Sequence record: OL631483.1
Strand: one strand, 5' to 3'
Source of the DNA: Escherichia phage ECML-363
Length of the DNA stretch: 64,000 nt
This document shows positions 3,147-64,000 of the stretch, one piece after another. Both the position numbers and the translations under genes were made by a program. Positions within the stretch are counted from its first letter, which is position 1, and each line of letters starts with the position of its first letter. Below the pieces are notes generated by a model. The model made no database searches. It was not told the origin of the DNA and saw nothing but the letters and a program-made list of their open reading frames with translations.

Positions 3147-3348
3147 TTTTCACCTTTTTATTAATGTGTCTTTTTCTATAGACAACTTTTTCTCGAGTCT
3201 CAAATTTATTCTTTGCAGTCATAGCTCGAGCCCATAATACAGCCACTTCTTTCGCCTGTAAGTTTAATTCACGAGCAATTTCAATGAATGACTTTCCAGA
3301 CTCATGAAGTGTAAACACCACAACTTCAGTTCTCATAATCAATCTCAT
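3133..3348 (-). CDS. Small putative helix-turn-helix protein (T4 24.3 position)
   Basis: 71-aa ORF; segment SGKSFIEIARELNLQAKEVAVLWARA resembles an HTH. Confidence 0.55.
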   Translation of the reverse strand: MRLIMRTEVVVFTLHESGKSFIEIARELNLQAKEVAVLWARAMTAKNKFETREKVVYRKRHINKKVKNGTV

Positions 3349-3413
3349 GTTATCGAGTTGGTGCCATTATATACATCATTTTCTGATTGTGTTTTGTGTG
3401 CTTTCAAAATGAA

Positions 3414-3434
3414 GAAAGGGGCCGAAGCCCCTTT
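3414..3434 (-). terminator. Hairpin terminator downstream of hoc
   Basis: GGGGC-CGAA-GCCCC stem-loop flanked by A/T runs just 3' of hoc stop. Confidence 0.6.
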
Positions 3435-4865: not shown

Positions 4866-5546
4866 TTATTTTAATGTTACGAAAGAAGAATTGCGTGTTT
4901 CACGAATTAAAACTGATCCGTCGCGATTAATGTAATAAATTAAGCTAAACAAAGTTTGGTGTGCTGACGCGTGTTCAAAACTAGTTGGATGAGATTTCCA
5001 ATCAGGAGTTTCAGCGATCCATTGATAAATCCACCAAGGAACCGTACAGAATCCTGGATTTTTCCCCAATAATTGAAGATTCGGGCTAAAGTTTTCCGGA
5101 AGAGTAAATACAGACGGCTTTTCAGATTCAATAATCTCAGCTATAGCTTGTTCAAACTTTTCTTCAACAAAAGGAGTGTCTTCAATCAAAACATCAGTAT
5201 TTTCAGGAATTTTATCCGTTTCTACCACTTCAATTTTAATATCAGATTTAACTGGAGAATCAATCAGAAGTGCTGCTTCTGGATTAACTTCTTCATCGTC
5301 ATATTTTAATCCCTCTGCAGCATCAGCAGCATCAATTAAGTCTTTAATAGATAACCCATCAGTCTCTGGCATAGGTTCACTAGCGAGCTTCTGGAGGGCT
5401 TCTTCAATATCAGCAACGATATTATCAAAAGATTTATTCTTTTTGACCTTTATACCAAACTGTTCAGCATATTCAGCTAATTTAGCTTTAGCTTCTTTAT
5501 TATCATCAAGAGCCTTCAGCTCTGCAATATAATCTTTATCTATCAT
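4866..5546 (-). CDS. inh: Inhibitor of prohead protease (Inh)
   Basis: 226-aa acidic ORF MIDKDYIAELKALDDNKEAKAKLAEYAEQFGIKVKK..., position between hoc and uvsW as in T4. Confidence 0.9.
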   Translation of the reverse strand: MIDKDYIAELKALDDNKEAKAKLAEYAEQFGIKVKKNKSFDNIVADIEEALQKLASEPMPETDGLSIKDLIDAADAAEGLKYDDEEVNPEAALLIDSPVKSDIKIEVVETDKIPENTDVLIEDTPFVEEKFEQAIAEIIESEKPSVFTLPENFSPNLQLLGKNPGFCTVPWWIYQWIAETPDWKSHPTSFEHASAHQTLFSLIYYINRDGSVLIRETRNSSFVTLK

Positions 5547-5596: not shown

Positions 5597-7108
5597 ATGA
5601 CTGACATTAAAGTACATTTTTATGATTTTAGTCACGTGAGAATTGATTGTGAAGAAAGTACATTTCATGAACTCCGTGATTTCTTTAGCTTTGAAGCTGA
5701 TGGGTATCGTTTTAATCCGAAATACAAATATGGCCACTGGGATGGACGAATCCGTCTTTTAGATTATAATCGTCTTCTTCCATTCGGCTTAGTCGGGCAA
5801 ATTAAAAAGTTCTGTGATAACTTTGGCTATAAAGCCTGGATTGACCCACAAATTAACGAAAAAGAAGAATTATCAAGAAAAGATTTTGATGAATGGCTTT
5901 CTAAATTAGAAATCTATTCAGGAAATAAAAGAATTGAACCACACTGGTATCAAAAAGATGCAGTGTTCGAAGGATTAGTTAATCGTCGTAGAATTCTTAA
6001 TCTTCCAACATCCGCAGGTAAATCTTTAATTCAAGCTTTGCTTGCACGTTATTATTTGGAAAATTATGAAGGTAAAATTCTTATCATTGTTCCAACAACT
6101 GCTCTAACAACTCAGATGGCTGATGACTTCGTTGACTATCGTTTATTCAGTCATGCAATGATAAAGAAAATTGGTGGCGGAGCATCAAAAGATGATAAAT
6201 ATAAAAATGATGCACCAGTCATTGTTGGTACATGGCAAACTGTAGTAAAACAGCCAAAAGAATGGTTCTCACAGTTTGGAATGATGATGAATGATGAATG
6301 CCATCTTGCTACAGGAAAAAGTATTTCATCTATCATATCAGGTTTAAATAACTGCATGTTCAAATTTGGTCTATCTGGTTCATTACGTGATGGCAAAGCC
6401 AATATCATGCAGTATGTTGGAATGTTTGGTGAAATATTTAAGCCAGTAACGACTTCTAAATTAATGGAAGATGGACAAGTAACTGAGCTAAAAATTAATA
6501 GTATTTTTCTTCGCTATCCCGATGAATTCACTACCAAATTAAAGGGAAAAACTTACCAAGAAGAAATAAAAATTATTACTGGGCTTAGTAAAAGAAATAA
6601 ATGGATCGCTAAATTAGCTATTAAGCTTGCGCAAAAAGATGAAAACGCTTTTGTCATGTTTAAACATGTATCACATGGTAAAGCTATTTTCGATTTAATT
6701 AAAAATGAATACGATAAAGTTTATTACGTATCAGGGGAAGTTGATACCGAAACCCGCAATATAATGAAAACCTTAGCTGAAAATGGTAAAGGAATAATTA
6801 TAGTAGCTAGTTATGGTGTATTTTCTACTGGTATTTCAGTTAAAAATCTGCACCACGTTGTTTTAGCGCACGGTGTTAAATCAAAAATCATTGTATTACA
6901 AACAATCGGTCGTGTATTACGTAAGCATGGTTCGAAGACAATAGCAACAGTCTGGGACCTCATAGATGATTGTGGTGTTAAGCCAAAATCTGCTAATACG
7001 AAAAAGAAATATGTTCATTTGAACTATCTTTTAAAACACGGCATTGATCGTATTCAGCGCTACGCAGATGAAAAATTTAATTACGTAATGAAAACAGTTA
7101 ATTTATAA
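5597..7108 (+). CDS. uvsW: UvsW DNA/RNA helicase (SF2)
   Basis: 503-aa ORF with Walker A LPTSAGKS, DECH box (MMMNDECHLATGK) and helicase C motifs. Confidence 0.95.
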   Translation: MTDIKVHFYDFSHVRIDCEESTFHELRDFFSFEADGYRFNPKYKYGHWDGRIRLLDYNRLLPFGLVGQIKKFCDNFGYKAWIDPQINEKEELSRKDFDEWLSKLEIYSGNKRIEPHWYQKDAVFEGLVNRRRILNLPTSAGKSLIQALLARYYLENYEGKILIIVPTTALTTQMADDFVDYRLFSHAMIKKIGGGASKDDKYKNDAPVIVGTWQTVVKQPKEWFSQFGMMMNDECHLATGKSISSIISGLNNCMFKFGLSGSLRDGKANIMQYVGMFGEIFKPVTTSKLMEDGQVTELKINSIFLRYPDEFTTKLKGKTYQEEIKIITGLSKRNKWIAKLAIKLAQKDENAFVMFKHVSHGKAIFDLIKNEYDKVYYVSGEVDTETRNIMKTLAENGKGIIIVASYGVFSTGISVKNLHHVVLAHGVKSKIIVLQTIGRVLRKHGSKTIATVWDLIDDCGVKPKSANTKKKYVHLNYLLKHGIDRIQRYADEKFNYVMKTVNL

Positions 7109-55807: not shown

Positions 55808-55960
55808 TCAATTAGTTGACTTTGTTATAATATCATCAGACGCTTGATTTGTAAACTGGTCTGTGTTATTTTCTTCAAAAATTTTTTCTACGAATTCCTT
55901 GAACGACTTACGTTCCTGAGCTACATTATGCTCGATTACTTTTTCAAGATTATGACTCAT
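55808..55960 (-). CDS. Small acidic ORF (51 aa) between arn and asiA
   Basis: Manual translation MSHNLEKVIEHNVAQERKSFKEFVEKIFEENNTDQFTNQASDDIITKSTN; ATGA-coupled to arn stop; below track size cut-off. Confidence 0.4.
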   Translation of the reverse strand: MSHNLEKVIEHNVAQERKSFKEFVEKIFEENNTDQFTNQASDDIITKSTN

Positions 55961-56318: not shown

Positions 56319-56537
56319 TTATGTTTTGCGACTAAATTGTTCATAATGCTGAATTACCTCTCTTAAACATTTGCATGTGAATGAGAACTTTTTAGCTACA
56401 CCACACTCAAATATATGTTCTCTTAAATCACGTGTATCAGTATATCCCATCTCAACAATAAAATGCCTTATTAGATTTTTATCTTTATCATTGAGAGAAT
56501 TAAAATAATCAGATTTTGAATTAATTTCCCTGGCCAA
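56319..56537 (-). CDS. Hypothetical protein (arn.1 region)
   Basis: 72-aa ORF. Confidence 0.5.
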   Translation of the reverse strand: MAREINSKSDYFNSLNDKDKNLIRHFIVEMGYTDTRDLREHIFECGVAKKFSFTCKCLREVIQHYEQFSRKT

Positions 56538-56817
56538 ATTGAATCACCTTCAGTTGACGTTTTAATTCTTTTATCATTTCTTCGTTCATCGCAATATAAA
56601 GATCGCGTAAAGCAGGTTTTAGCATTCCATTTACCGGAGAACTAAATGGGCATACATAATCTTTTCCTACAAGCTTTTTGGTAAATTCCATATCACAAAA
56701 TTTAAATGCCGGCTCATTCGCATAAATTCCCCAATTAGTTGACATCATTTTATTGGCATATTCCAGTGCCTGAATTTGATTCATAATTCCATCAATTTGA
56801 AACTTTTTAATATTCAT
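56521..56817 (-). CDS. Hypothetical protein (arn.2 region)
   Basis: 98-aa ORF. Confidence 0.5.
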   Translation of the reverse strand: MNIKKFQIDGIMNQIQALEYANKMMSTNWGIYANEPAFKFCDMEFTKKLVGKDYVCPFSSPVNGMLKPALRDLYIAMNEEMIKELKRQLKVIQFGQGN

Positions 56818-57278
56818 TAGTAAAGGTCCTCAGAGTAAAGTTCTTTTTCACTACCACCACGTTCAATACGTACTTGTCCAGCGTAAGTTGCAATAATCAT
56901 TGCTTCTTCACGTGTCCAATAATTACTGTATTGGTCAATAAACCCTTGGTCATCATCACAAACTTGTTGAGTAACTAATTGAGGTTTAACTACATCTAAA
57001 ACTTCTGCCATATCTTTAGAATAATGACGAGCACCTGGAATAACGAGAGTTCGTCCATCTTTTAATTTAAAACGGTTGGCTGCGCAGACAATTCGTCGTT
57101 GATACTTTTGGTTTTCATCCCAATACGCAGTCTGCCAACATATTTCAGGAACTTCATCTAAAACATTTTGTTCTGTATATTCACCGCCGTAAGAAGCTAA
57201 TTTAGCAGCCAGACTTTCCGGAGTCTCACGTAACAAAGCTTTATCTAACAGAGCTAAACGTTCTTTAAAAGTTTTCAT
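56817..57278 (-). CDS. Hypothetical protein (arn.3 region)
   Basis: 153-aa ORF. Confidence 0.55.
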
Positions 57279-57604
57279 TTAAACCATCCTTTAATACGTT
57301 GCCACAAAGTTTTCTGTTGAGCTTTGTTAACACCAATTGAGCGAATAACCGGTTGAGATTCCTGGAATTCTTTATAATCAGCAAGATAAATTTCGTAAGC
57401 TGCATCTGTAAAGGAACTTATCGCTGCCATAAAATTATTGCGAATACCTACTGGAGCATCTTTACTTTCACGAATAATCATGTATTTACCAGTCTTAATC
57501 TTTACGATAGTTCCAAGATAAGCTCCATGATACCAGATGTCCCAACCCTCTTGAGTAGGTTCTGCACAACGACGAAGTTCATTGACAATTTCTAACTTGT
57601 TCAT
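57275..57604 (-). CDS. Hypothetical protein (arn.4 region)
   Basis: 109-aa ORF. Confidence 0.5.
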
Positions 57605-57614
57605 TATTTATTCC

Positions 57615-58250
57615 TCACAGTTCAGATGCTACAGTGATTACTGCTTCAATGTTTTCTGCCGAACGTTTAATGTCAAGATACACATTACCGTTTTTAGCGA
57701 TTTTACAAGACATTCCGATATCGGTAAATTTCTGAATATGATGTTCCATCATTTTGTATCCAAAAATTCGCATGTTTCCATTATTGTTAATTTCAAAATT
57801 GCGAATTCCGTGAGTGCGTTTTTCTAAAATAGCAAGATAGTTACTGCGGTAAGTTTCAACCTTTTTAAGAACAAATCCATTTTCATCTAAAAGTTTTAAC
57901 ATGAGGTCTTTATCTTCTTCCATATCAGAAGTAATCTCACGAGCTTTACGAGTAGCACGTTTTTTCAGAAGTTCTGGAGCATTTTCCTGCGCATATAAAG
58001 TTGCTGCATTTGAAATAATATCTTGCGCTTCGCCTGTAATGATTAATCCATCACCTGATTTCTCTACCAGGCCTTTTTTAATTAATACCCCAATATTACT
58101 ATTAACTACTGCGTTACCTAAATCTGGATGCACCTCACGAACTTCTGCAGCTGTAATGAAATCTTTCTTAGCAATAGTAATTAAAATCGCAGCAGTTTTT
58201 TCATTCAGAACATCGTTAGAAGCTTTGATGATGTAAGTTACTTTAGACAT
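57615..58250 (-). CDS. motA: Middle-transcription activator MotA
   Basis: 211-aa ORF MSKVTYIIKASNDVLNEKTAAILITIAKKDFITAAEVREVHPDLGNAVVNSNIGVLIKKGL... Confidence 0.95.
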   Translation of the reverse strand: MSKVTYIIKASNDVLNEKTAAILITIAKKDFITAAEVREVHPDLGNAVVNSNIGVLIKKGLVEKSGDGLIITGEAQDIISNAATLYAQENAPELLKKRATRKAREITSDMEEDKDLMLKLLDENGFVLKKVETYRSNYLAILEKRTHGIRNFEINNNGNMRIFGYKMMEHHIQKFTDIGMSCKIAKNGNVYLDIKRSAENIEAVITVASEL

Positions 58251-58291
58251 TTTCTAATCTCCGTAATTCTGTATCAGTAGTTGATAATTAT

Positions 58292-58321
58292 ATAGTACCA
58301 CAGTATGCTTTGGTTGTAAAC
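58292..58321 (-). promoter_or_regulatory. T4-type early promoter upstream of motA
   Basis: Minus-sense GGTTTACAACCAAAGCATACTGTGGTACTAT preceded by A/T-rich element. Confidence 0.55.
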
Positions 58322-58351
58322 CGTTTTGTGAAAAAAATTTTAAAATAAAAA

Positions 58352-58371
58352 GGGAGAGCCGAGGCTCTCCC
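58352..58371 (-). terminator. Hairpin GGGAGAGCC-(TCGG)-CTCTCCC
   Basis: 8-bp stem followed in minus sense by T-run. Confidence 0.6.
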
Positions 58372-58377
58372 TAAAAA

Positions 58378-58527
58378 TTACTGCATGACTGTGATAACTG
58401 TCATGATAACACGTTGAATTCCGAACGCAAGAAGACCTCCTGCTACGGCTGGAACAACACCTAAACCCGCCAGTAAAATGCTACCGGATACTAATGCAGC
58501 GCTTGTAATACCTATGAATGGACTCAT
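58378..58527 (-). CDS. Small hydrophobic protein (49 aa) between gene 52 and motA
   Basis: Manual translation MSPFIGITSAALVSGSILLAGLGVVPAVAGGLLAFGIQRVIMTVITVMQ; ATGA-coupled to gene 52 stop. Confidence 0.4.
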   Translation of the reverse strand: MSPFIGITSAALVSGSILLAGLGVVPAVAGGLLAFGIQRVIMTVITVMQ

Positions 58528-59852
58528 TTGATTTCCTCTAAATCTTTGGTGTATTCTGTAACTACATCAGTAGTTTTCCAATATTCGTTTTCTTCTTTTT
58601 TAGCTTTAGCTTCTTCAGCAAGTTTCTTTGCTTCATCAGAAGTCATATGAAAAATATTCATTCCAACCAGTTTATCAACATAAGAAGAATACATATCAAT
58701 TTTAGAAAGTTCTTCGGTCAGTTCTTTGCGAGTTTTACCTTGCACAACAATTTCACCTGAAATTACTTTCTTAATGAAATGTGCCTTGGCAAAGGCTAAA
58801 CGAAAAGCTGACTCAGTTTCTTTGATTTTGTTATCAATTCGTTTTTGGACATAAGTTTTACGAACTTCAACAAAGTCTTTAATTAAATCAACTACGTTAT
58901 CGTAAACTTGTAGTTTTCCTTTCTCATTAATAACCGTAATATTCTGAGAACGACGCTCAATCAACCCGAAGTCTTTCATAATTTTTGCATGGCGTTCTTC
59001 TTCGTTATCGCTCAAAGAATATTCTTTACGGAATTTAACTTTGAATCCAAAACCATGCTCACCACAAGCATCATCCCATGTAATGAAGCCTTTATCTTCA
59101 AGTGGGTCTAAGATTTTACTCACATAAGTTTCACGATCATACTTATACGGAATCTCAGTGATATGCATTTGAGTTCGTGAAGTAAACTTATATGTTCCAC
59201 GAATTTCATATTGGCCATCAATCTCAACGACTTCACCACGAAATTCTGGGAATTCTACCTTCGGTTTAGTTACTTTCTTTCCTTGAAGAGCTTGTAATAC
59301 AGCTTTCTTAACAGAAGAAACACTATGAGGAAGAATGTAAGTTGCATAACCAGTTGCAATACCGGAAACACCATTAAGAAGAACAGTAGGAATAATAGGC
59401 AAATAGAAAGCAGGCGGAATGTGTTCTTTATCTTGATGTACCGGAGCATATTCAGTATCTTTATATACGTTATAGAAATTTTTACTTACACGAGCAAAAA
59501 TATAACGACTTGCTGCTGCTTTTTGGACGGTACGAGAACCAAAGTTTCCTTGACCATCTAACAGAGGAAAATTATTATTCCAAGTGTTAGCCATCAAAGC
59601 ACCTGCGTCTTGCGCAGAGTTTTCACCATGATGATATCCAAGGTCCGCTACACCACCTGCAATAGAAGCGAGTTTGTGAAACTTATCTTTATTTCCTCGT
59701 GCCAAATCAAGAGCTCGAGCAATAACAAATCGTTGAACTGGCTTAAATCCGTCAATCATATTTGGAATGGCACGATTTTCAACCGTGTACATAGCATAAG
59801 CCAATGCTTCATTATCAATGATACTTTTTAAATCGCGATTATTCAGTTGCAT
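58524..59852 (-). CDS. 52: DNA topoisomerase II medium subunit gp52
   Basis: 442-aa ORF MQLNNRDLKSIIDNEALAYAMYTVENRAIPNMIDGFKPVQRFVIARAL... (GyrA/ParC-like cleavage core). Confidence 0.97.
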   Translation of the reverse strand: MQLNNRDLKSIIDNEALAYAMYTVENRAIPNMIDGFKPVQRFVIARALDLARGNKDKFHKLASIAGGVADLGYHHGENSAQDAGALMANTWNNNFPLLDGQGNFGSRTVQKAAASRYIFARVSKNFYNVYKDTEYAPVHQDKEHIPPAFYLPIIPTVLLNGVSGIATGYATYILPHSVSSVKKAVLQALQGKKVTKPKVEFPEFRGEVVEIDGQYEIRGTYKFTSRTQMHITEIPYKYDRETYVSKILDPLEDKGFITWDDACGEHGFGFKVKFRKEYSLSDNEEERHAKIMKDFGLIERRSQNITVINEKGKLQVYDNVVDLIKDFVEVRKTYVQKRIDNKIKETESAFRLAFAKAHFIKKVISGEIVVQGKTRKELTEELSKIDMYSSYVDKLVGMNIFHMTSDEAKKLAEEAKAKKEENEYWKTTDVVTEYTKDLEEIK

Positions 59853-59856
59853 AAAT

Positions 59857-60003
59857 TTACCATACTAGTGAATGTAGTGCCATAATAACATCAGAAATGA
59901 AAAGCACGACTTGAATTAATCCGAACATTACTCCATAATATAGTGCTACTAATAAAGTAGCAAGGGCTAATGAATAGCCCAAGATTTTCTTAATCATTTT
60001 CAT
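59857..60003 (-). CDS. Small hydrophobic protein (48 aa)
   Basis: Manual translation MKMIKKILGYSLALATLLVALYYGVMFGLIQVVLFISDVIMALHSLVW. Confidence 0.4.
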   Translation of the reverse strand: MKMIKKILGYSLALATLLVALYYGVMFGLIQVVLFISDVIMALHSLVW

Positions 60004-60142
60004 TTAATAGCCAAAACAATGATAAAATTGCTAATACGCCTTGAGCTGTTGCTTGTAAAAATACTGAAGTTTCTCCAGTTATTACTGTTCCGGCGAATAA
60101 AAAGGACCAGCAGAAAAAGGCTATACCATAAACAAATTTCAT
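59990..60142 (-). CDS. Small membrane protein (50 aa), possible ac
   Basis: Manual translation MKFVYGIAFFCWSFLFAGTVITGETSVFLQATAQGVLAILSLFWLLNEND; position between stp and 52 fits T4 ac. Confidence 0.4.
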   Translation of the reverse strand: MKFVYGIAFFCWSFLFAGTVITGETSVFLQATAQGVLAILSLFWLLNEND

Positions 60143-60149
60143 ATTTTCC

Positions 60150-60230
60150 TCACTGGCGTCCGAAGACGCCTTTAGTTTTAAAATTATTACGATAGAACTG
60201 CATCACATGTTCGTTATGGAAATTACTCAT
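60150..60230 (-). CDS. stp: Stp peptide (trigger of host PrrC anticodon nuclease)
   Basis: Manual translation [26 protein letters not shown] (26 aa) matches T4 Stp as recalled; TAATG overlap with ndd stop. Confidence 0.85.
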
Positions 60231-60688
60231 TAATATGCCTGCAAAACGAATTTAAAGTTATCAGCCAACATACGGTTCATTTCTTCAAGTGTTTGATACT
60301 CAGAATGATGATTACGAGTAAACGCTAAAGCTAACTGTCCTTTTCCAAATCCCGTCGTCAGAGGTTTCATCTTAGAAGCAGGCAGATAAAACACTGTGTA
60401 TGGAACATTGTTATTTGCAATAGTACGTGCAAGCTGAGACCGACGTTGACGAATATGACTTAGAACTGCACTGAATCCTTGCTTAGAACGCTGATTACCT
60501 ACATAAAATCGTGCTGACACACATGGATTACTAAATGGACGACCATCTAATTTACTTACTAAAAAGTAAAATCCAGGTTTAGATAAAATATCTTTATGCG
60601 GAGTTCCCAAAAACCACTCACCACCCTTGATTGTACCAATAACAGTAGCACCTGCATCATTCAGATCAGTAACAGTCATATATTTCAT
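60230..60688 (-). CDS. ndd: Nucleoid disruption protein Ndd
   Basis: Start corrected to [49 protein letters not shown]... (~151 aa). Confidence 0.9.
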
Positions 60689-60746
60689 ATTAATTTCCTC
60701 TAAATTATTTTCTACTCCAAGGCCGCATGAATACGCGGCCATTAAA

Positions 60747-60962
60747 TTAATCGTCGCAGTCGACGCTCAATTCCCAAAACTCTTCTACGGTATAAGTTTC
60801 AGTATCATTTTCAATACAGAAACGTTCATTACTATTGTTTGCTAAAGTAGCGTTAACTGTCATTTTTTCGCTAGTGCTCTTAAGAGGTGAAATACGAATT
60901 AACTGATCGCCGTTATCTAAACAAAAAATTTCACCAACTTTTACATCTTTAAAGATTTTCAT
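60747..60962 (-). CDS. Hypothetical protein (ndd.1 region)
   Basis: 71-aa ORF. Confidence 0.5.
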
Positions 60963-60970
60963 AATTCACC

Positions 60971-61078
60971 TCAAGGAGTATAAAATCCAAATGCAGTTGT
61001 TGACCATCCCATCCAATATGGAAAATTTGCACCAATGTAAAACATAAGAATATAAAACCAACCGCTCAACAAATTCAT
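60971..61078 (-). CDS. Tiny hydrophobic ORF (35 aa)
   Basis: Manual translation MNLLSGWFYILMFYIGANFPYWMGWSTTAFGFYTP; ATGA-coupled to upstream ORF. Confidence 0.3.
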   Translation of the reverse strand: MNLLSGWFYILMFYIGANFPYWMGWSTTAFGFYTP

Positions 61079-61275
61079 CATTTTACACCATTCCAAATTG
61101 TTTCAACTACGGATTTTAAACCATTTTGATGAATATCCATTCCGACTACTGCCATCAAATAGATTCCAACTACAACTGAACCTAAGGCGAAAATCAGCAT
61201 AAAAATGAATAAAGCCGGAAAAATATTATCGAAAAACCATTCAATAAATGTAAAAGCACCGCGTTTACGCTTCAT
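61078..61275 (-). CDS. Small membrane protein
   Basis: Probable start MKRKRGAFTFIEWFFDNIFPALFIFMLIFALGSVVVGIYLM... (65 aa) with GAGGAAAAT SD. Confidence 0.45.
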   Translation of the reverse strand: MKRKRGAFTFIEWFFDNIFPALFIFMLIFALGSVVVGIYLMAVVGMDIHQNGLKSVVETIWNGVK

Positions 61276-61282
61276 ATTTTCC

Positions 61283-61396
61283 TCACATAAATCCAAAATA
61301 AGCGTTTAACATATCAATCATTAAAACGATTGGGAATATACTCAAAACTATTAGTATTATAACTACATTCCATATAGCTTTAACAATCTTTTTCAT
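61283..61396 (-). CDS. Small membrane protein (37 aa)
   Basis: Track ORF reads through promoter; true start MKKIVKAIWNVVIILIVLSIFPIVLMIDMLNAYFGFM with GGAGGAACAGAAA SD. Confidence 0.4.
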   Translation of the reverse strand: MKKIVKAIWNVVIILIVLSIFPIVLMIDMLNAYFGFM

Positions 61397-61424
61397 TTTC
61401 TGTTCCTCCGTAGTTGATAGGGTA

Positions 61425-61454
61425 ATAATACCACAGAGGAGCAGTCTTGTAAAC
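61425..61454 (-). promoter_or_regulatory. T4-type early promoter (GTTTACA -17 bp- TATTAT)
   Basis: Minus-sense GTTTACAAGACTGCTCCTCTGTGGTATTAT. Confidence 0.5.
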
Positions 61455-61638
61455 AACTTTTTAAAAATATTCGTAATAAATGTGAATACCAATCACCACT
61501 GCTGAAACTTGTGCAACCCACCACGCGCAAGCAATAAGTACAGAATTCATAATTTTCATAATAACCTCATTACAAAAGTAAATGTTAAACAAATTACTGG
61601 AATACTAATTAACCAAACAAAACACCACCATAATGAAC

Positions 61639-61902
61639 TCATAGTTCAATCTCAGCGATTTTCATTTCATTACTATTAATAGCCGCTTTAAGACTATCTG
61701 AAAGAATTACATTCCAGTGGTCATTCATATGACCATTAACTAAGCGTGTAATTTCTTCGGGAGTTGAAAAATAAGGCGTATCAGACTCCCAATGCGATAA
61801 TCCTAAGCGAGTATAAATCATACCTTCATCATCGCTAGAATATTCAACTGACACAAACTCATCAGTTATTTTATGTTTAGCGTAATAAAATTTAAATTTC
61901 AT
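61639..61902 (-). CDS. Hypothetical protein (ndd.x region)
   Basis: Track ORF reads through promoter; true start MKFKFYYAKHKITDEFVSVEYSSDDEG... (87 aa) with GGAGGAGCGGAAA SD. Confidence 0.5.
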   Translation of the reverse strand: MKFKFYYAKHKITDEFVSVEYSSDDEGMIYTRLGLSHWESDTPYFSTPEEITRLVNGHMNDHWNVILSDSLKAAINSNEMKIAEIEL

Positions 61903-61930
61903 TTTCCGCTCCTCCGTAGTTGATAGTTGT

Positions 61931-61960
61931 ATATTACCACGGTCCTTGTGGTATGTAAAC
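61931..61960 (-). promoter_or_regulatory. T4-type early promoter (GTTTACA -17 bp- TAATAT)
   Basis: Minus-sense GGTTTACATACCACAAGGACCGTGGTAATAT with upstream A/T-rich element. Confidence 0.5.
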
Positions 61961-61976
61961 CGTTTTGTGAAAATTT

Positions 61977-62534
61977 TTAAATGGAAAGATACCATCCGTT
62001 GTAGTTGCTTTTTCTTACAACCTTACGAAGGTCTTCTCTGTCACCGATGAACTTCGGAGTGTACTGGATGACACCTGGATGAATTTCTTTAGTGTTGAAT
62101 ATAATTATACAGTCAGCGACTTGATGATTTAGAATGGGCCCTAGATTTATTCCAGAACCATATGGATACTCTCCGCTGCATCCCGTTGTTACCGAAATCC
62201 AACGCGAGTCAGTTTGATGTGTCTTAACTTCTACACGAAGCCCGCAGTATCTTGGATGCGCCAATACATCCCATGCGTATGTATACGGGTCATTAACGTC
62301 CTCTTGGCCTTTGTTAACATACCCGCTTAGCCAATCTGCTACAAAAAACTCTGCGTACACCGCGATACGGCATCTTTCGATAACTTCTGCTTTATCCTGG
62401 TTCGGGTTTTGTTTTAAAGAGTATCTTGCTGTATCAGCAATTTTGACCTTCATTTCACTAGTCAAATCACTGTTCGATAGGGTAAATGTCGGAATCTGAA
62501 ATAGTCTCTGTAAACCCGGATTCGTTTTCTGCAT
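61977..62534 (-). CDS. denB: Endonuclease IV (dC-specific ssDNA endonuclease)
   Basis: 185-aa ORF; position next to rIIB and length as T4 denB; start codon choice uncertain. Confidence 0.8.
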   Translation of the reverse strand: MQKTNPGLQRLFQIPTFTLSNSDLTSEMKVKIADTARYSLKQNPNQDKAEVIERCRIAVYAEFFVADWLSGYVNKGQEDVNDPYTYAWDVLAHPRYCGLRVEVKTHQTDSRWISVTTGCSGEYPYGSGINLGPILNHQVADCIIIFNTKEIHPGVIQYTPKFIGDREDLRKVVRKSNYNGWYLSI

Positions 62535-62796
62535 TTAGACTTTCCTTTTTACCGCTGAGATAAGCGTTATATACTTTAAGAGTGCCGTAATAAATTCGGT
62601 CATTTTCATCTAAAGACTCACGGTCAAGTTCATCGAGTTCCTTTTTATCCATGACTATAACATCATTGCAATAAAGAAACCCAAGTTTTTTGTGTCCAAA
62701 CTCAAATTTATTACAGTACACAATATTAGCGTGATGATTACCATGTAGAGAAATTTCTTTTATGTCGGAATCACCGATATTCATACAATAAATCAT
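62467..62796 (-). CDS. Hypothetical protein (denB.1 region)
   Basis: 109-aa ORF; 3' end overlaps annotated denB start by ~68 nt in another frame. Confidence 0.45.
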   Translation of the reverse strand: MIYCMNIGDSDIKEISLHGNHHANIVYCNKFEFGHKKLGFLYCNDVIVMDKKELDELDRESLDENDRIYYGTLKVYNAYLSGKKESLNAENESGFTETISDSDIYPIEQ

Positions 62797-62814
62797 AATT
62801 CACCTTAAAACAAA

Positions 62815-62830
62815 AGGGCCGAAGCCCTTA
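62815..62830 (-). terminator. Hairpin AAGGGC-CGAA-GCCCTT
   Basis: Module gggccgaagcccttatttaaattgt also present at 63049-63073. Confidence 0.5.
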
Positions 62831-63022
62831 TTTAAATTGTGCAATTCTTTTCTCTAGACACTCAGCATAAGATTTCATTGAGATGAACTGTGAAAGCAGC
62901 AGTTCTTGCTCAACTGCACTAACCGTTAGAAACTTTGCGCTTTCTAAAAATTTGCTCAGTGCATTAATTTTGAGCATTAATTGATCGTATTCTTCTTTTA
63001 CTCGTGCTTGATAACCTAACAT
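62828..63022 (-). CDS. Hypothetical protein
   Basis: 64-aa ORF between two copies of the hairpin module. Confidence 0.5.
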   Translation of the reverse strand: MLGYQARVKEEYDQLMLKINALSKFLESAKFLTVSAVEQELLLSQFISMKSYAECLEKRIAQFK

Positions 63023-63046
63023 AATTTTCCTTAGTTAAGGGCCGAA

Positions 63047-63062
63047 GCCCTTATTTAAATTG
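63047..63062 (-). terminator. Hairpin AAGGGC-CGAA-GCCCTT overlapping rIIB stop
   Basis: Second copy of repeated hairpin module. Confidence 0.5.
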
Positions 63063-63989
63063 TTCAGTAACGTCTTCAATTACTTCGTATTGGCAGGTAC
63101 GCATTTTAGCGTCGTTGTAATCAATCGGAATTGATACTACATCACGAGGATGAACTTTAACTTTTACAACTCGGCTGGTTGAACCACCGAAGTGACGAAT
63201 ATAAGATTTAGAACACACATGCAGACCACGAGAACAAGTTTGTGTATCATCGTCATTTACACGAGTACGTGGCATTTTAACTACTTTACCAGGACTGTTA
63301 TCAAAGGTATTTGAGTGACAGTCAAAGTAATTGCTACGAACTACTTTCCAAGCATAGAAGTAACCATCTTCTGTAATTTCAATATCGTTTGCTACCAAGA
63401 AATCAAAAAGTCGAGATACCGCTTTCTGGCTTGGGTTTTCCAGCAGATTTTCCAAGAACGGAAAATAAAATTCAAAGTTTTCGCCTTTTTCCATCGAATC
63501 AAGAATACGATCAACCAAACCAGACCGCAATTCAATATTTTGATAGAATAAGCTTCCACCTTCAATTCGAACATCGCCGGAAATATATTTTTCAACAGCG
63601 CGACGAACATTAATTTTTTGTGCCGCTTCTTCCAGCTTATCCGCTACAAGCAGATTGAGAATTTCCTGGAAGTTTGAATGAGTATTAGGTGTTGCATTAT
63701 AAGTTACACCATCGACAGTAATCGAAATGAATTTTTTAGATGCATTCCAAATAATGTCAGATTTAGTAACTGGAGCAATAACTGCATCGCTATTAACTTT
63801 AACTGTAATATCACCGCTAATAGTAACTTTAGAGCGTTTAGCTTCTTCAGCATTTTTCAAAACACGACGGATTGTATCAACCGATACACCTTGCCAATCA
63901 GCCAATTCCTGCTGAGTATAATTACCGCTTGAATACAGTTTAACAATTTCAGCTTGTTCGTTTTTGGTCAGGCATTTAATATTGTACAT
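63051..63989 (-). CDS. rIIB: rIIB (membrane-associated protein; Rex exclusion target)
   Basis: 312-aa ORF MYNIKCLTKNEQAEIVKLYSSGNYTQQELADWQGVSVDTIRRVLKNAEEAKRSKVTISGD... Confidence 0.95.
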   Translation of the reverse strand: MYNIKCLTKNEQAEIVKLYSSGNYTQQELADWQGVSVDTIRRVLKNAEEAKRSKVTISGDITVKVNSDAVIAPVTKSDIIWNASKKFISITVDGVTYNATPNTHSNFQEILNLLVADKLEEAAQKINVRRAVEKYISGDVRIEGGSLFYQNIELRSGLVDRILDSMEKGENFEFYFPFLENLLENPSQKAVSRLFDFLVANDIEITEDGYFYAWKVVRSNYFDCHSNTFDNSPGKVVKMPRTRVNDDDTQTCSRGLHVCSKSYIRHFGGSTSRVVKVKVHPRDVVSIPIDYNDAKMRTCQYEVIEDVTEQFK

Positions 63990-64000
63990 AATTTTCCTTA

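Follow-up and report, generated by a model that had tools for sequence, protein, structure and literature searches.

A dense set of tiny hydrophobic ORFs surrounds gene 52 and fills the space between ndd and denB in Escherichia phage ECML-363 (OL631483.1), which raises the question of whether they are genes and, if so, what their products do in the infected cell. The stretch of 64,000 nucleotides analyzed here (the window) is a Tequatrovirus sequence with 98% identity to phages Sf23 and Ec_O157kw. Around gene 52 and in the ndd-denB gap, we found eight tiny hydrophobic ORFs of 28 to 65 aa on the minus strand, interspersed with three that encode small soluble products (stp, 26 aa; ndd.1, 71 aa; and an 87-aa ORF) (Table 1). 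All the ORFs listed in an earlier note on this DNA exist on this strand and are mostly hydrophobic, with two adjustments: the ORF placed at 60971-61078 is real but its longest frame reaches 61081, the second ATG at 61078 having been taken as the start, and the real tiny ORFs placed in 61493-61638 are ndd.5 (61461-61559) and ndd.6 (61556-61642).

Table 1. Coordinates of the small genes, context genes and transcription signals (numbered along the window)
Feature	Position	Strand	Remarks
Early promoter for motA	58278..58321	-	Pattern search, promoter scan, repeat family
Intrinsic terminator	58351..58372	-	9-bp stem then T-run; closes the ndd-to-motA.1 transcription unit
motA.1, 49-aa glycine-rich hydrophobic peptide	58378..58527	-	ATGA-coupled to gene 52
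Gene 52, topoisomerase II medium subunit (context gene)	58524..59852	-	100% identity to T4
52.1, membrane peptide (Pfam DUF7396)	59857..60003	-	Longest ORF 48 aa
ac, 50-aa membrane peptide	59990..60142	-	Divergent allele class
stp, 26-aa soluble peptide	60150..60230	-	TAATG-coupled to ndd
ndd, nucleoid disruption protein (context gene)	60230..60688	-	99% identity to T4
GC-rich hairpin, 6 nt past the ndd.1 stop	60721..60740	-	-19.2 kcal/mol, z = -2.8
ndd.1, 71-aa soluble acidic protein	60747..60962	-	T4 ortholog
ndd.2, 36 aa	60971..61081	-	Joined to the 65-aa ORF by ATGA
65-aa membrane protein (Pfam DUF7248)	61078..61275	-	Equals T4 ndd.3 + ndd.2a
ndd.4, 37 aa	61283..61396	-	N-terminal KK..K, 21-residue hydrophobic core
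Second T4-type early promoter, before ndd.4	61411..61454	-	Pattern search, promoter scan, repeat family
ndd.5, 32-aa hydrophobic peptide	61461..61559	-	ATGA-coupled to ndd.6; GAGG ribosome-binding site
ndd.6, 28-aa hydrophobic peptide	61556..61642	-	ATGA-coupled to the 87-aa ORF
87-aa soluble ORF	61639..61902	-	phrog_2390; equals PST ORF268, Sf23 gp116
T4-type early promoter before the 87-aa ORF	61917..61960	-	Pattern search, promoter scan, repeat family D1

The cluster is the Tequatrovirus version of a known T4 early accessory region, running from gene 52/motA.1 to denB. Order and strand are those of T4 (motA, motA.1, 52, 52.1, ac, stp, ndd, ndd.1, ndd.2, ndd.2a/3, ndd.4, ndd.5, ndd.6, denB; reference annotation NC_000866, T4p263-T4p275), as are the overlaps and promoters, and synteny and identity hold against T4 and 18 relatives. 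Every small ORF except the 87-aa one has a named T4 counterpart, with product identities of 92 to 100% (Ac, at 40%, is the sole exception), and all of those scanned belong to a PHROG family (stp was left out of the scan). The region differs from that of T4 in the extra 87-aa ORF between denB and ndd.6, in a single 65-aa ORF in place of ndd.3 and ndd.2a, and in ndd.4, annotated as 42 aa in T4, whereas the start common to Tequatrovirus relatives gives 37 aa. We rejected a reading of these ORFs as overlooked genes, since apart from the 87-aa ORF they are named T4 genes, with PHROG families, two Pfam DUFs and an accession (PF26886) on record for motA.1 homologs. The cluster is already catalogued and roles are described for ac and stp only, so that most of its products are uncharacterized, as had been claimed, but not these two.

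The ORFs are tightly packed, and the translational coupling proposed earlier was found at the junctions listed: ATGA overlaps join orf87/ndd.6, ndd.6/ndd.5, ndd.3-2a/ndd.2 and gene 52/motA.1, and the ndd/stp junction is TAATG. In addition, 52.1 overlaps the end of ac by 8 to 14 nt. The early promoters that had been proposed upstream of several ORFs also hold up, with four matches in the window to the pattern GTTTAC-N17-TAnnnT...TCAACTA against zero expected; T4 transcriptomics assigns the mRNAs of the cluster genes to the early class (PMC9697503 Table S2). Three of the pattern copies, inside or flanking the region, form repeat family D1 (three copies of roughly 61 nt), and the one before the 87-aa ORF reads GTTTAC-N17-TAATAT, followed by a TCAACTA leader and a GGAGG ribosome-binding site. 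The hairpin behind ndd.1 has no T-run 3' of its stem, and the terminator scan made no call there.

Promoter-early stem-loop (PeSL) cassettes occur in T4-like phages (PMC2839356, PMC4122927). The terminator hairpin and the TTTACW-N17-TAYWAT promoter at 58372-58278 form such a cassette, repeated promoter cassettes flank ORFs that vary among relatives, and the locus is that of PMC4122927 Fig. 6A, where the 87-aa ORF (with no match among T4 proteins) is described as a PeSL-mediated exchange. However, the scan detected no terminator-like stem-loop upstream of the promoters at 61960 and 61454, which correspond to the promoter half only.

Are these ORFs real? They could be chance open frames in AT-rich DNA, in a region that would in fact serve as promoter, leader or regulatory RNA sequence: hydrophobic ORFs arise readily in such DNA, and a 59-aa hydrophobic ORF in an alternative frame of gene 52 is intact in 15 of 15 relatives. 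The tiling of the region argues otherwise, as ATG-initiated ORFs on the gene strand fill 85% of the ndd.1-denB gap, a coverage reached by none of 1,000 shuffled sequences (31 ± 15%), while on the opposite strand they cover 10%. About 15 genomes share the starts and stops of the small ORFs, and relatives also preserve their ribosome-binding sites and overlapping stops. Substitutions pile up at third codon positions, and pN/pS is 0.03 to 0.32 in nine of the ten scorable small genes with T4 names (for ac, from two comparable sequences only), the exception being ndd.4, compared with 0.56 to 1.25 in alternative-frame and antisense control ORFs. Amino acid conservation spans genera despite saturated synonymous sites, and no Rfam family matched, which speaks against a regulatory RNA. 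The absence of all the hydrophobic peptides and Stp from the published T4 proteome obtained by mass spectrometry, in which Ndd.1 is seen early, could favor chance frames, as could the lack of a fitness effect upon knockdown. However, most of the hydrophobic peptides have 0 to 3 tryptic sites (the 65-aa protein has six), which makes detection by this method difficult anyway; a literature search retrieved no ribosome-profiling study of T4. We consider chance frames extremely improbable and, judging from the sequence, the small ORFs to be real, conserved genes under purifying selection.

The 65-aa ORF matches PF23906 with an E value of 1.1e-19 (70.5 bits against a curated cutoff of 27) and phrog_2401 over its full length, with a pN/pS of 0.124. 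At least 80% of it is aligned in 497 of the 500 phage records with a match. In the T4 reference, a 1-nt deletion after codon 2 splits this single gene, and T4 ndd.3 and ndd.2a are its two fragments. Phage SV76 carries a nonsense mutation and a disrupted ac; with the T4 frameshift, these natural or laboratory knockouts indicate that selection on the small genes can be relaxed.

Of the hydrophobic ORFs, motA.1, 52.1 and the 65-aa ORF each occur in 494 to 910 phage genomes. The motA.1 product is identical to that of T4 (phrog_3487 at 2.2e-31; pN/pS 0.208) and has matches in 494 phage records, of which 466 show at least 95% identity. Present in 910 phage records, 52.1 matches PF24129 (E value of 3.5e-23, 81.9 bits; curated cutoff 27) and retains 92%, 89% and 65% identity in three other genera, with a cross-genus dN/dS of about 0.09. 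Its conserved start is the second ATG (59997), which gives 46 aa and is common to 17 of the 18 matching relatives; the upstream ATG is otherwise present only in Sf23. The ndd.2 product (97% identity to T4; phrog_4135; pN/pS 0.118) has no charged residues and is 33% aromatic. Ndd.5 (94% identity; phrog_5011 at 1e-25; pN/pS 0.107) and Ndd.6 (100%; phrog_8851 at 1.6e-17; pN/pS 0.125) are close to their T4 counterparts as well, the latter with homologs of 43 to 54% identity in Dhaka-, Mosig- and Gaprivervirus and a weak constraint between genera (0.36 to 0.67 in the cross-genus dN/dS analysis). Ndd.4 (92%; phrog_3098) has homologs in IME08, VR20 and CC31 with a dN/dS of at most 0.19 across genera; its within-genus pN/pS of 0.84 comes from only 7 variable sites.

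All eight have GRAVY values of 0.6 to 1.8 and an uncharged stretch of 21 to 38 residues; in the 65-aa protein, a hydrophobic stretch of 30 residues lies between KRKR at the N terminus and a polar tail at the C terminus. The single-pass topology suggested previously fits the size of these eight, as would a hairpin, but not the three soluble products (Stp, Ndd.1 and the 87-aa protein), which share the operons of the membrane set without belonging to it.

Small early membrane proteins of T4 have a precedent in Imm and Sp, which exclude superinfecting phages, and the earlier note had linked the peptides to such factors. Like Imm and Sp, the peptides are early, small and predicted to be located in the envelope, and one or more of them could block DNA entry of a secondary phage. 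However, imm and sp lie at other loci of the genome and explain T4 exclusion genetically, and searches with PHROG, Pfam and PADLOC revealed no homology to exclusion proteins. The PHROG matches are the peptides' own families, which have no assigned function or bear only a location label, with weak secondary matches to other families of unknown function only, and none is shared with an annotated exclusion protein. No exclusion phenotype is known to map to the cluster. [quoted passage not shown] The proposed link finds no backing here, and we consider exclusion quite unlikely.

The same mutant bears on lipid metabolism. T4 sa-delta-9 reaches 50% of the wild-type yield, but phospholipid synthesis is no longer stimulated (PMC6071114), and several of the products removed with 52.1, ac, stp, ndd, ndd.1-ndd.6 and denB are membrane peptides, which could act on inner-membrane enzymes of lipid synthesis or transport and so cause the T4-induced phosphatidylglycerol stimulation. 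However, this stimulation is reportedly also absent from mutants in which only dCTPase, endonuclease IV (denB) and Alc are missing (PMC6071114), which points to denB or alc instead of the peptides and makes a role in lipid stimulation unlikely. In a CRISPRi-ART screen (PMC11879866 supplement), gene 52 was scored "Fit" and all the small genes of the cluster "Not Fit". Given this knockdown and the sa-delta-9 deletion, the small genes are dispensable in laboratory hosts.

The two genes with described roles are neighbors. Stp shares 25 of 26 residues with T4 Stp (96%), directly follows ndd, and has a pN/pS of 0.034; T4 Stp is annotated as an activator of the host PrrC. Acridine sensitivity of infected cells is due to T4 Ac (bioRxiv 10.1101/2025.06.30.662393; PMC13250531), and a block of AcrAB-TolC efflux by Ac has been proposed in a preprint, with the acriflavine phenotype recorded for ac alleles of the T4/T2 type only (bioRxiv 10.1101/2025.06.30.662393). 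The ac gene found here, preceded by a strong ribosome-binding site (GAGGAAAAT), shares position between stp and 52.1, size, PHROG (phrog_2501 at 8.7e-23) and conserved core (C11 W12 ... VF.Q...QG, with 11 residues invariant across allele classes) with T4 ac (T2 "pr"). Its product has only 40 to 45% identity to T4 Ac and is nearer to the Mosigvirus form (52 to 60%, against 40% for T4 Ac). The divergence is limited to the ORF, between conserved flanks, and by this pattern ac is a cassette-like divergent allele. In phage Shfl2, an extra small hydrophobic ORF is found at this locus.

The peptides might also inhibit, or be sensed by, membrane-associated defense systems of the host or its prophages. 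The swap of a 40%-identical ac allele between identical flanks, the exchange of whole ORFs at the locus and the additional Shfl2 ORF would fit such a conflict, as would dispensability in laboratory strains and the neighbor-gene parallels of stp with EcoprrI/PrrC, in the same operon, and of rIIA/rIIB with Rex. However, the peptides other than Ac show strong conservation rather than diversification, and PADLOC gave only a weak, probably chance, match of Ndd.4 to KwaA (E value of 0.0086). We know of no experimental link, and regard a defense conflict as rather unlikely.

The proposal that we prefer concerns the host membrane. AcrZ is a small bacterial inner-membrane regulator that binds AcrB. The phage peptides, of 30 to 65 residues with a single hydrophobic helix, resemble it, and the target proposed for Ac, AcrAB-TolC, is the complex bound by AcrZ; they differ in being phage-encoded, AcrZ being bacterial, and a phmmer comparison of Ac, MotA.1 and the 65-aa protein with PDB sequences, AcrZ included, gave nothing below E = 0.3. 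Two early promoters of the sigma-70 type, near 61960 and 61454, precede the block orf87-ndd.6-ndd.5 / ndd.4-(ndd.3+2a)-ndd.2-ndd.1 / ndd-stp-ac-52.1-52-motA.1, and the terminator at 58372-58351 ends it. Translation of each small ORF presumably starts at a ribosome-binding site of its own or depends on coupling to the preceding ORF. Eight alpha-helical products (MotA.1, 52.1, Ac, Ndd.2, the 65-aa Ndd.3/2a protein, Ndd.4, Ndd.5 and Ndd.6) are predicted to insert into the host inner membrane, and the N-terminal positive charges of Ndd.4, Ndd.5, 52.1 and the 65-aa protein suggest an N-in orientation. With Ac as the model case and by analogy with small bacterial membrane proteins, each peptide may bind and modulate a host inner-membrane protein or complex, a step that we put forward tentatively, as a possibility short of an even chance.

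The initial observation of a dense set of small hydrophobic ORFs is confirmed, and its interpretation is partly supported. As a whole, a catalogued T4 early cluster of real genes, whose membrane peptides would modulate host proteins, is the best explanation of the locus, and one that we hold with moderate confidence. The peptide set is probably important only for certain hosts or under certain conditions.

The segment at 56500-64000 has matches in 929 phage records, headed by Tequatrovirus genomes, with Ec_O157kw (98.2%) and Shigella phage Sf23 (97.9%) closest over the full 7.5 kb, and all of its genes lie on the minus strand. Against the annotations of T4 and Sf23, their order is arn.2-4, motA, motA.1, 52, 52.1, ac, stp, ndd, ndd.1, ndd.2, ndd.2a/ndd.3, ndd.4, ndd.5, ndd.6, an ORF without a T4 counterpart (orf87), denB, a second ORF without a T4 counterpart, denB.1 and rIIB. 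The earlier note had described a dense set of tiny hydrophobic ORFs around gene 52 and between ndd and denB. All the ORFs that it listed were found, but its interpretation stands only in part. T4 names, PHROG and Pfam families and published data already exist for this cluster, and the set is therefore a re-description of a known, annotated T4 cluster and not a new one. The nine small T4-named genes scanned (all except stp) and orf87 match PHROG families with E values of 1e-17 to 1e-46, the families being labeled as of unknown function or by location only. In Pfam, the 65-aa ORF is DUF7248 and 52.1 is DUF7396, and PF26886 is assigned to motA.1 homologs.

Small ORFs, promoters, and hairpins in and near the segment, with pN/pS within Tequatrovirus (ndd and ndd.1 are comparison genes)
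Feature	Coordinates	Strand	Length or description	pN/pS
promoter pattern, fourth copy	55813-55856
Arn.4-type ORF	57275-57604	minus	109 aa
promoter	58278-58321	minus	before motA
hairpin	58372-58351	minus	9 bp, with T-run, after motA.1
motA.1	58378-58527	minus	49 aa	0.208
52.1	59857-60003	minus	longest ORF 48 aa; 46 aa from conserved start 59997	0.32
ac	59990-60142	minus	50 aa
stp	60150-60230	minus	26 aa	0.034
ndd				0.088
hairpin	60721-60740	minus	GC-rich, 8 bp, no T-run; 6 nt past ndd.1 stop, 32 nt ahead of ndd start
ndd.1	60747-60962	minus	71 aa	0.098
ndd.2	60971-61081	minus	36 aa	0.118
ndd.3 + ndd.2a	61078-61275	minus	65 aa	0.124
ndd.4	61283-61396	minus	37 aa
promoter	61411-61454	minus	before ndd.4
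ndd.5	61461-61559	minus	32 aa	0.107
ndd.6	61556-61642	minus	28 aa	0.125
orf87	61639-61902	minus	87 aa, no T4 counterpart
promoter	61917-61960	minus	before orf87
ORF between denB and denB.1	62467-62796	minus	109 aa, absent from T4

Since AT-rich DNA readily yields hydrophobic ORFs (the ORF listing has several inside known genes of the window as well), coding potential was tested in three ways. When tiling by ATG-initiated ORFs of at least 25 aa was compared with dinucleotide shuffles (n = 1000), ORFs covered 85% of the gene strand in the ndd.1-denB gap versus 31 +/- 15% in the shuffles (0 of 1000 as high) and 10% of the opposite strand, and 76% of the gene 52-ndd gap versus 20% (11 of 1000). 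An IMG/VR scan with Ndd had provided only five loci, and relatives were hence drawn from GenBank phage records; across about 15 Tequatrovirus genomes and four other genera (loci L001-L019), every ORF keeps its start codon, ribosome-binding site, length and stop with few exceptions. In one of these loci (L003, IMG/VR UViG 2974742932), a single nucleotide inserted close to the ndd.6 terminus abolishes the stop, so that an 83-aa ORF runs across ndd.5; this is either natural variation or a misassembly. The pN/pS values point to purifying selection, overlapping alternative-frame and antisense control ORFs in the same DNA giving 0.56-1.25. The within-genus value of ndd.4 (0.84) comes from 7 variable sites and is uninformative; its homologs in Dhakavirus, Gaprivervirus and Karamvirus give a cross-genus dN/dS of at most 0.19, and 52.1 one of ~0.09. 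Conservation is broad: 494 phage records have motA.1 (at least 95% identical in 466), 500 have the 65-aa ORF (at least 80% of its length matched in 497) and 910 have 52.1, Klebsiella and Kosakonia T4-like phages among them. The small ORFs are genuine protein-coding genes, and chance ORFs in AT-rich DNA were rejected as an explanation on the shuffle and pN/pS results.

Alignment of the start region of the 65-aa gene from T4, the window, RB68 and SV76 revealed a 1-nt deletion just past the start codon in the T4 reference (the gene spans 5933-6129 of the T4 locus, L001), which reads ATGAA-CGTAAACGC where the other three read ATGAAGCGTAAACGC or ATGAAGAGTAAACGC. Of 16 related loci with a match, 14 have the frame undisrupted at full length (65 aa, or 68 aa in VR20), as does one record labeled as a mutant T4 clone; SV76, of the T2 type, carries a GGA-to-TGA stop at codon 45. 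The T4 "ndd.3" (26 aa, a PHROG singleton) corresponds to the frameshifted N terminus of this gene and "ndd.2a" (40 aa) to the rest of it, the C-terminal part, with an internal ATG as start. As judged from the alignment, ndd.3 and ndd.2a of T4 are two pieces of one gene, and because the reference annotation splits a conserved 65-aa gene, T4-based screens target a broken one.

By hydropathy, eight peptides are hydrophobic (MotA.1, 52.1, Ac, Ndd.2, the 65-aa Ndd.3/2a protein, Ndd.4, Ndd.5 and Ndd.6), with GRAVY values of 0.62-1.77 and uncharged stretches of 21-38 residues, and the products of stp, ndd.1 and orf87 are soluble. We infer that the eight are alpha-helical inner-membrane proteins, and the positive N termini of Ndd.4 (KK..K), Ndd.5, 52.1 (KK) and the 65-aa protein (KRKR) suggest an N-in orientation for these four. 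Ndd.6 has its sole charge at the C terminus, Ndd.2 has no charged residues and is one-third aromatic, and MotA.1, glycine-rich with a central proline, may form a hairpin. The public labels "outer membrane" and "periplasmic" are not credible for uncharged hydrophobic peptides of 28-49 residues. Public records also contain wrong, automatically propagated names, such as "naphthalene 1,2-dioxygenase" for ndd.4 and ndd.2, "flagellar motor protein MotA" and "transcriptional regulator" for motA.1 and "outer membrane protein" for ndd.5 and ndd.6 (examples are at 4990-5103, 2307-2456 and 3323-3433 of the compared loci L002, L008 and L009, respectively, and in many motA.1 records). Shigella phage Shfl2 has an extra 57-aa hydrophobic ORF between ndd and stp (L014, 4152-4325), and this locus seems to be a collecting site for small membrane-protein genes.

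The translational coupling and early promoters claimed earlier were both borne out. ATGA overlaps occur at orf87/ndd.6, ndd.6/ndd.5, 65-aa ORF/ndd.2 and gene 52/motA.1, a TAATG overlap occurs at ndd/stp, and ac and 52.1 also overlap; uncoupled ORFs have strong ribosome-binding sites, namely GGAGGA (ndd.4 and orf87), GAGGAAAAT (ac and the 65-aa ORF) and AGAGGAAAT (motA.1). Three promoter-like sites of the region, which form one repeat family of three members of ~61 nt, yielded the pattern GTTTAC, 15-19 nt, TAnnnT, then TCAACTA, with four occurrences across the 64-kb window and none in any of 100 shuffles. The pattern is circular for its three source sites, the independent evidence being the fourth copy, the absence from shuffles and agreement with the promoter consensus published for PST/T4 promoter-early stem-loop (PeSL) cassettes, TTTACW-N17-TAYWAT (PMC4122927). 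Exchange of ORFs at precisely this locus, T4 ndd.4/.5 versus PST ORF268/269, has been published as PeSL-mediated shuffling (PMC4122927 Fig. 6A). The hairpin between ndd.1 and ndd (-19.2 kcal/mol over a 72-nt folded stretch, z = -2.8) may serve in RNA processing or stability and not as a terminator. A search of the entire window against Rfam gave no match.

In time-resolved omics of T4, motA.1, 52.1, ac, stp, ndd.2, ndd.2a, ndd.3, ndd.4, ndd.5 and ndd.6 have early transcripts with no protein detected, and the Ndd and Ndd.1 proteins are detected early (PMC9697503 Table S2). Since most of the hydrophobic peptides contain few lysine or arginine residues (0-3, with six in the 65-aa protein), their proteomic absence is expected and says little; small membrane proteins are systematically missed by proteomics. 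A literature search found no ribosome profiling study of T4. In CRISPRi-ART, knock-down of motA.1, 52.1, ac, stp, ndd, ndd.1-6 and denB is scored "Not Fit" and that of gene 52 "Fit" (PMC11879866 supplement); the main texts of HIDEN-SEQ and CRISPRi-ART do not mention these genes. The small genes of the cluster are dispensable in laboratory hosts. The T4 deletion sa-delta-9, which lacks 52.1, ac, stp, ndd, ndd.1-6 and denB, gives a yield ~50% of that of the wild type and abolishes the stimulation of phospholipid synthesis after infection (PMC6071114). A rival explanation of the peptides is control of lipid synthesis; stimulation of phosphatidylglycerol is lost too in a mutant without dCTPase, endonuclease IV and Alc (review, PMC6071114).

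Ac is the sole membrane peptide of the set with a phenotype. T4 that has lost ac is resistant to acriflavine, and expression of ac sensitizes E. coli. A preprint proposes that Ac blocks AcrAB-TolC and assigns the gene to one of three clusters in T4 that are predicted to encode membrane proteins (bioRxiv 10.1101/2025.06.30.662393; also PMC13250531). The Ac of the window is 40-45% identical to T4-type Ac and 52-60% identical to the Mosigvirus form, and the divergence is bounded by the ac ATG and the 52.1 start, with nearly identical flanking DNA. On these comparisons, ac of the window is a cassette-like divergent allele, and a rare one (at least 99% identity in 11 records); in SV76 the gene is disrupted. 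The allele classes share 11 invariant residues (M1, C11, W12, T19, V27, F28, Q30, Q34, G35, A38 and L40). Searches based on T4 DNA in studies of Ac miss this second allele class, which would help in finding out which residues are important.

Among the neighbors, orf87 (phrog_2390) is absent from T4 and lies directly downstream of an early promoter, with alleles of just 52-55% identity in the other Tequatroviruses slur03, e11/2 and NIC06P2. A homolog search found just six close proteins, only one of five AlphaFold models was confident (pLDDT of 75 versus ~42) and no Foldseek match in the PDB had an E value under 0.2; neither structure prediction nor fold search yielded a usable lead. The ORF between denB and denB.1 shares 68 nt with the start of the long (185-aa) denB frame, and Sf23 and slur03 are annotated with a shorter denB (158 aa) starting beyond it; the denB start in the window phage is therefore uncertain. 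The Arn.4-type ORF adjoining motA is not hydrophobic and is 79% identical to Mosigvirus Arn.4 (T4 arn.4 is annotated at just 68 aa). By size and position it is probably a homolog of Emp (AV110 Gp94), a growth-inhibitory peptide for which a 2026 report describes inhibition of MreBCD-dependent cell-wall synthesis (bioRxiv 10.64898/2026.09.14.751387). Mosigvirus Emp was also considered as one of the small hydrophobic ORFs and rejected, as it corresponds to Arn.4, beside motA.

A PDB sequence search with Ac, MotA.1, the 65-aa protein and orf87 returned zero relatives, and a wide homolog search with MotA.1 returned T4-like proteins only (82-100% identity), with no clue from outside. Superinfection exclusion, which the earlier note had raised, is one rival role for the peptides, and defense or counter-defense is another; the sole result of PADLOC was a weak match of Ndd.4 to KwaA (E = 0.0086), judged a chance likeness between hydrophobic sequences. 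By analogy, with Ac and efflux as the model, we tentatively favor a mechanism in which each of these small peptides would modulate a host complex of the inner membrane and bring a benefit that shows only in particular hosts or conditions. A more speculative and rather unlikely extension is that the eight form a battery of "micro-regulators," each with a separate target in the host inner membrane (efflux pumps, lipid synthesis, transporters or membrane-bound defense), that the swap of ac for a 40%-identical allele would be the trace of an arms race against a host target that varies and that one member, not denB, would cause the phospholipid phenotype of sa-delta-9. Re-identifying a long-annotated T4 cluster adds little in itself; its genes are kept across hundreds of T-even genomes and are expressed within minutes of infection.
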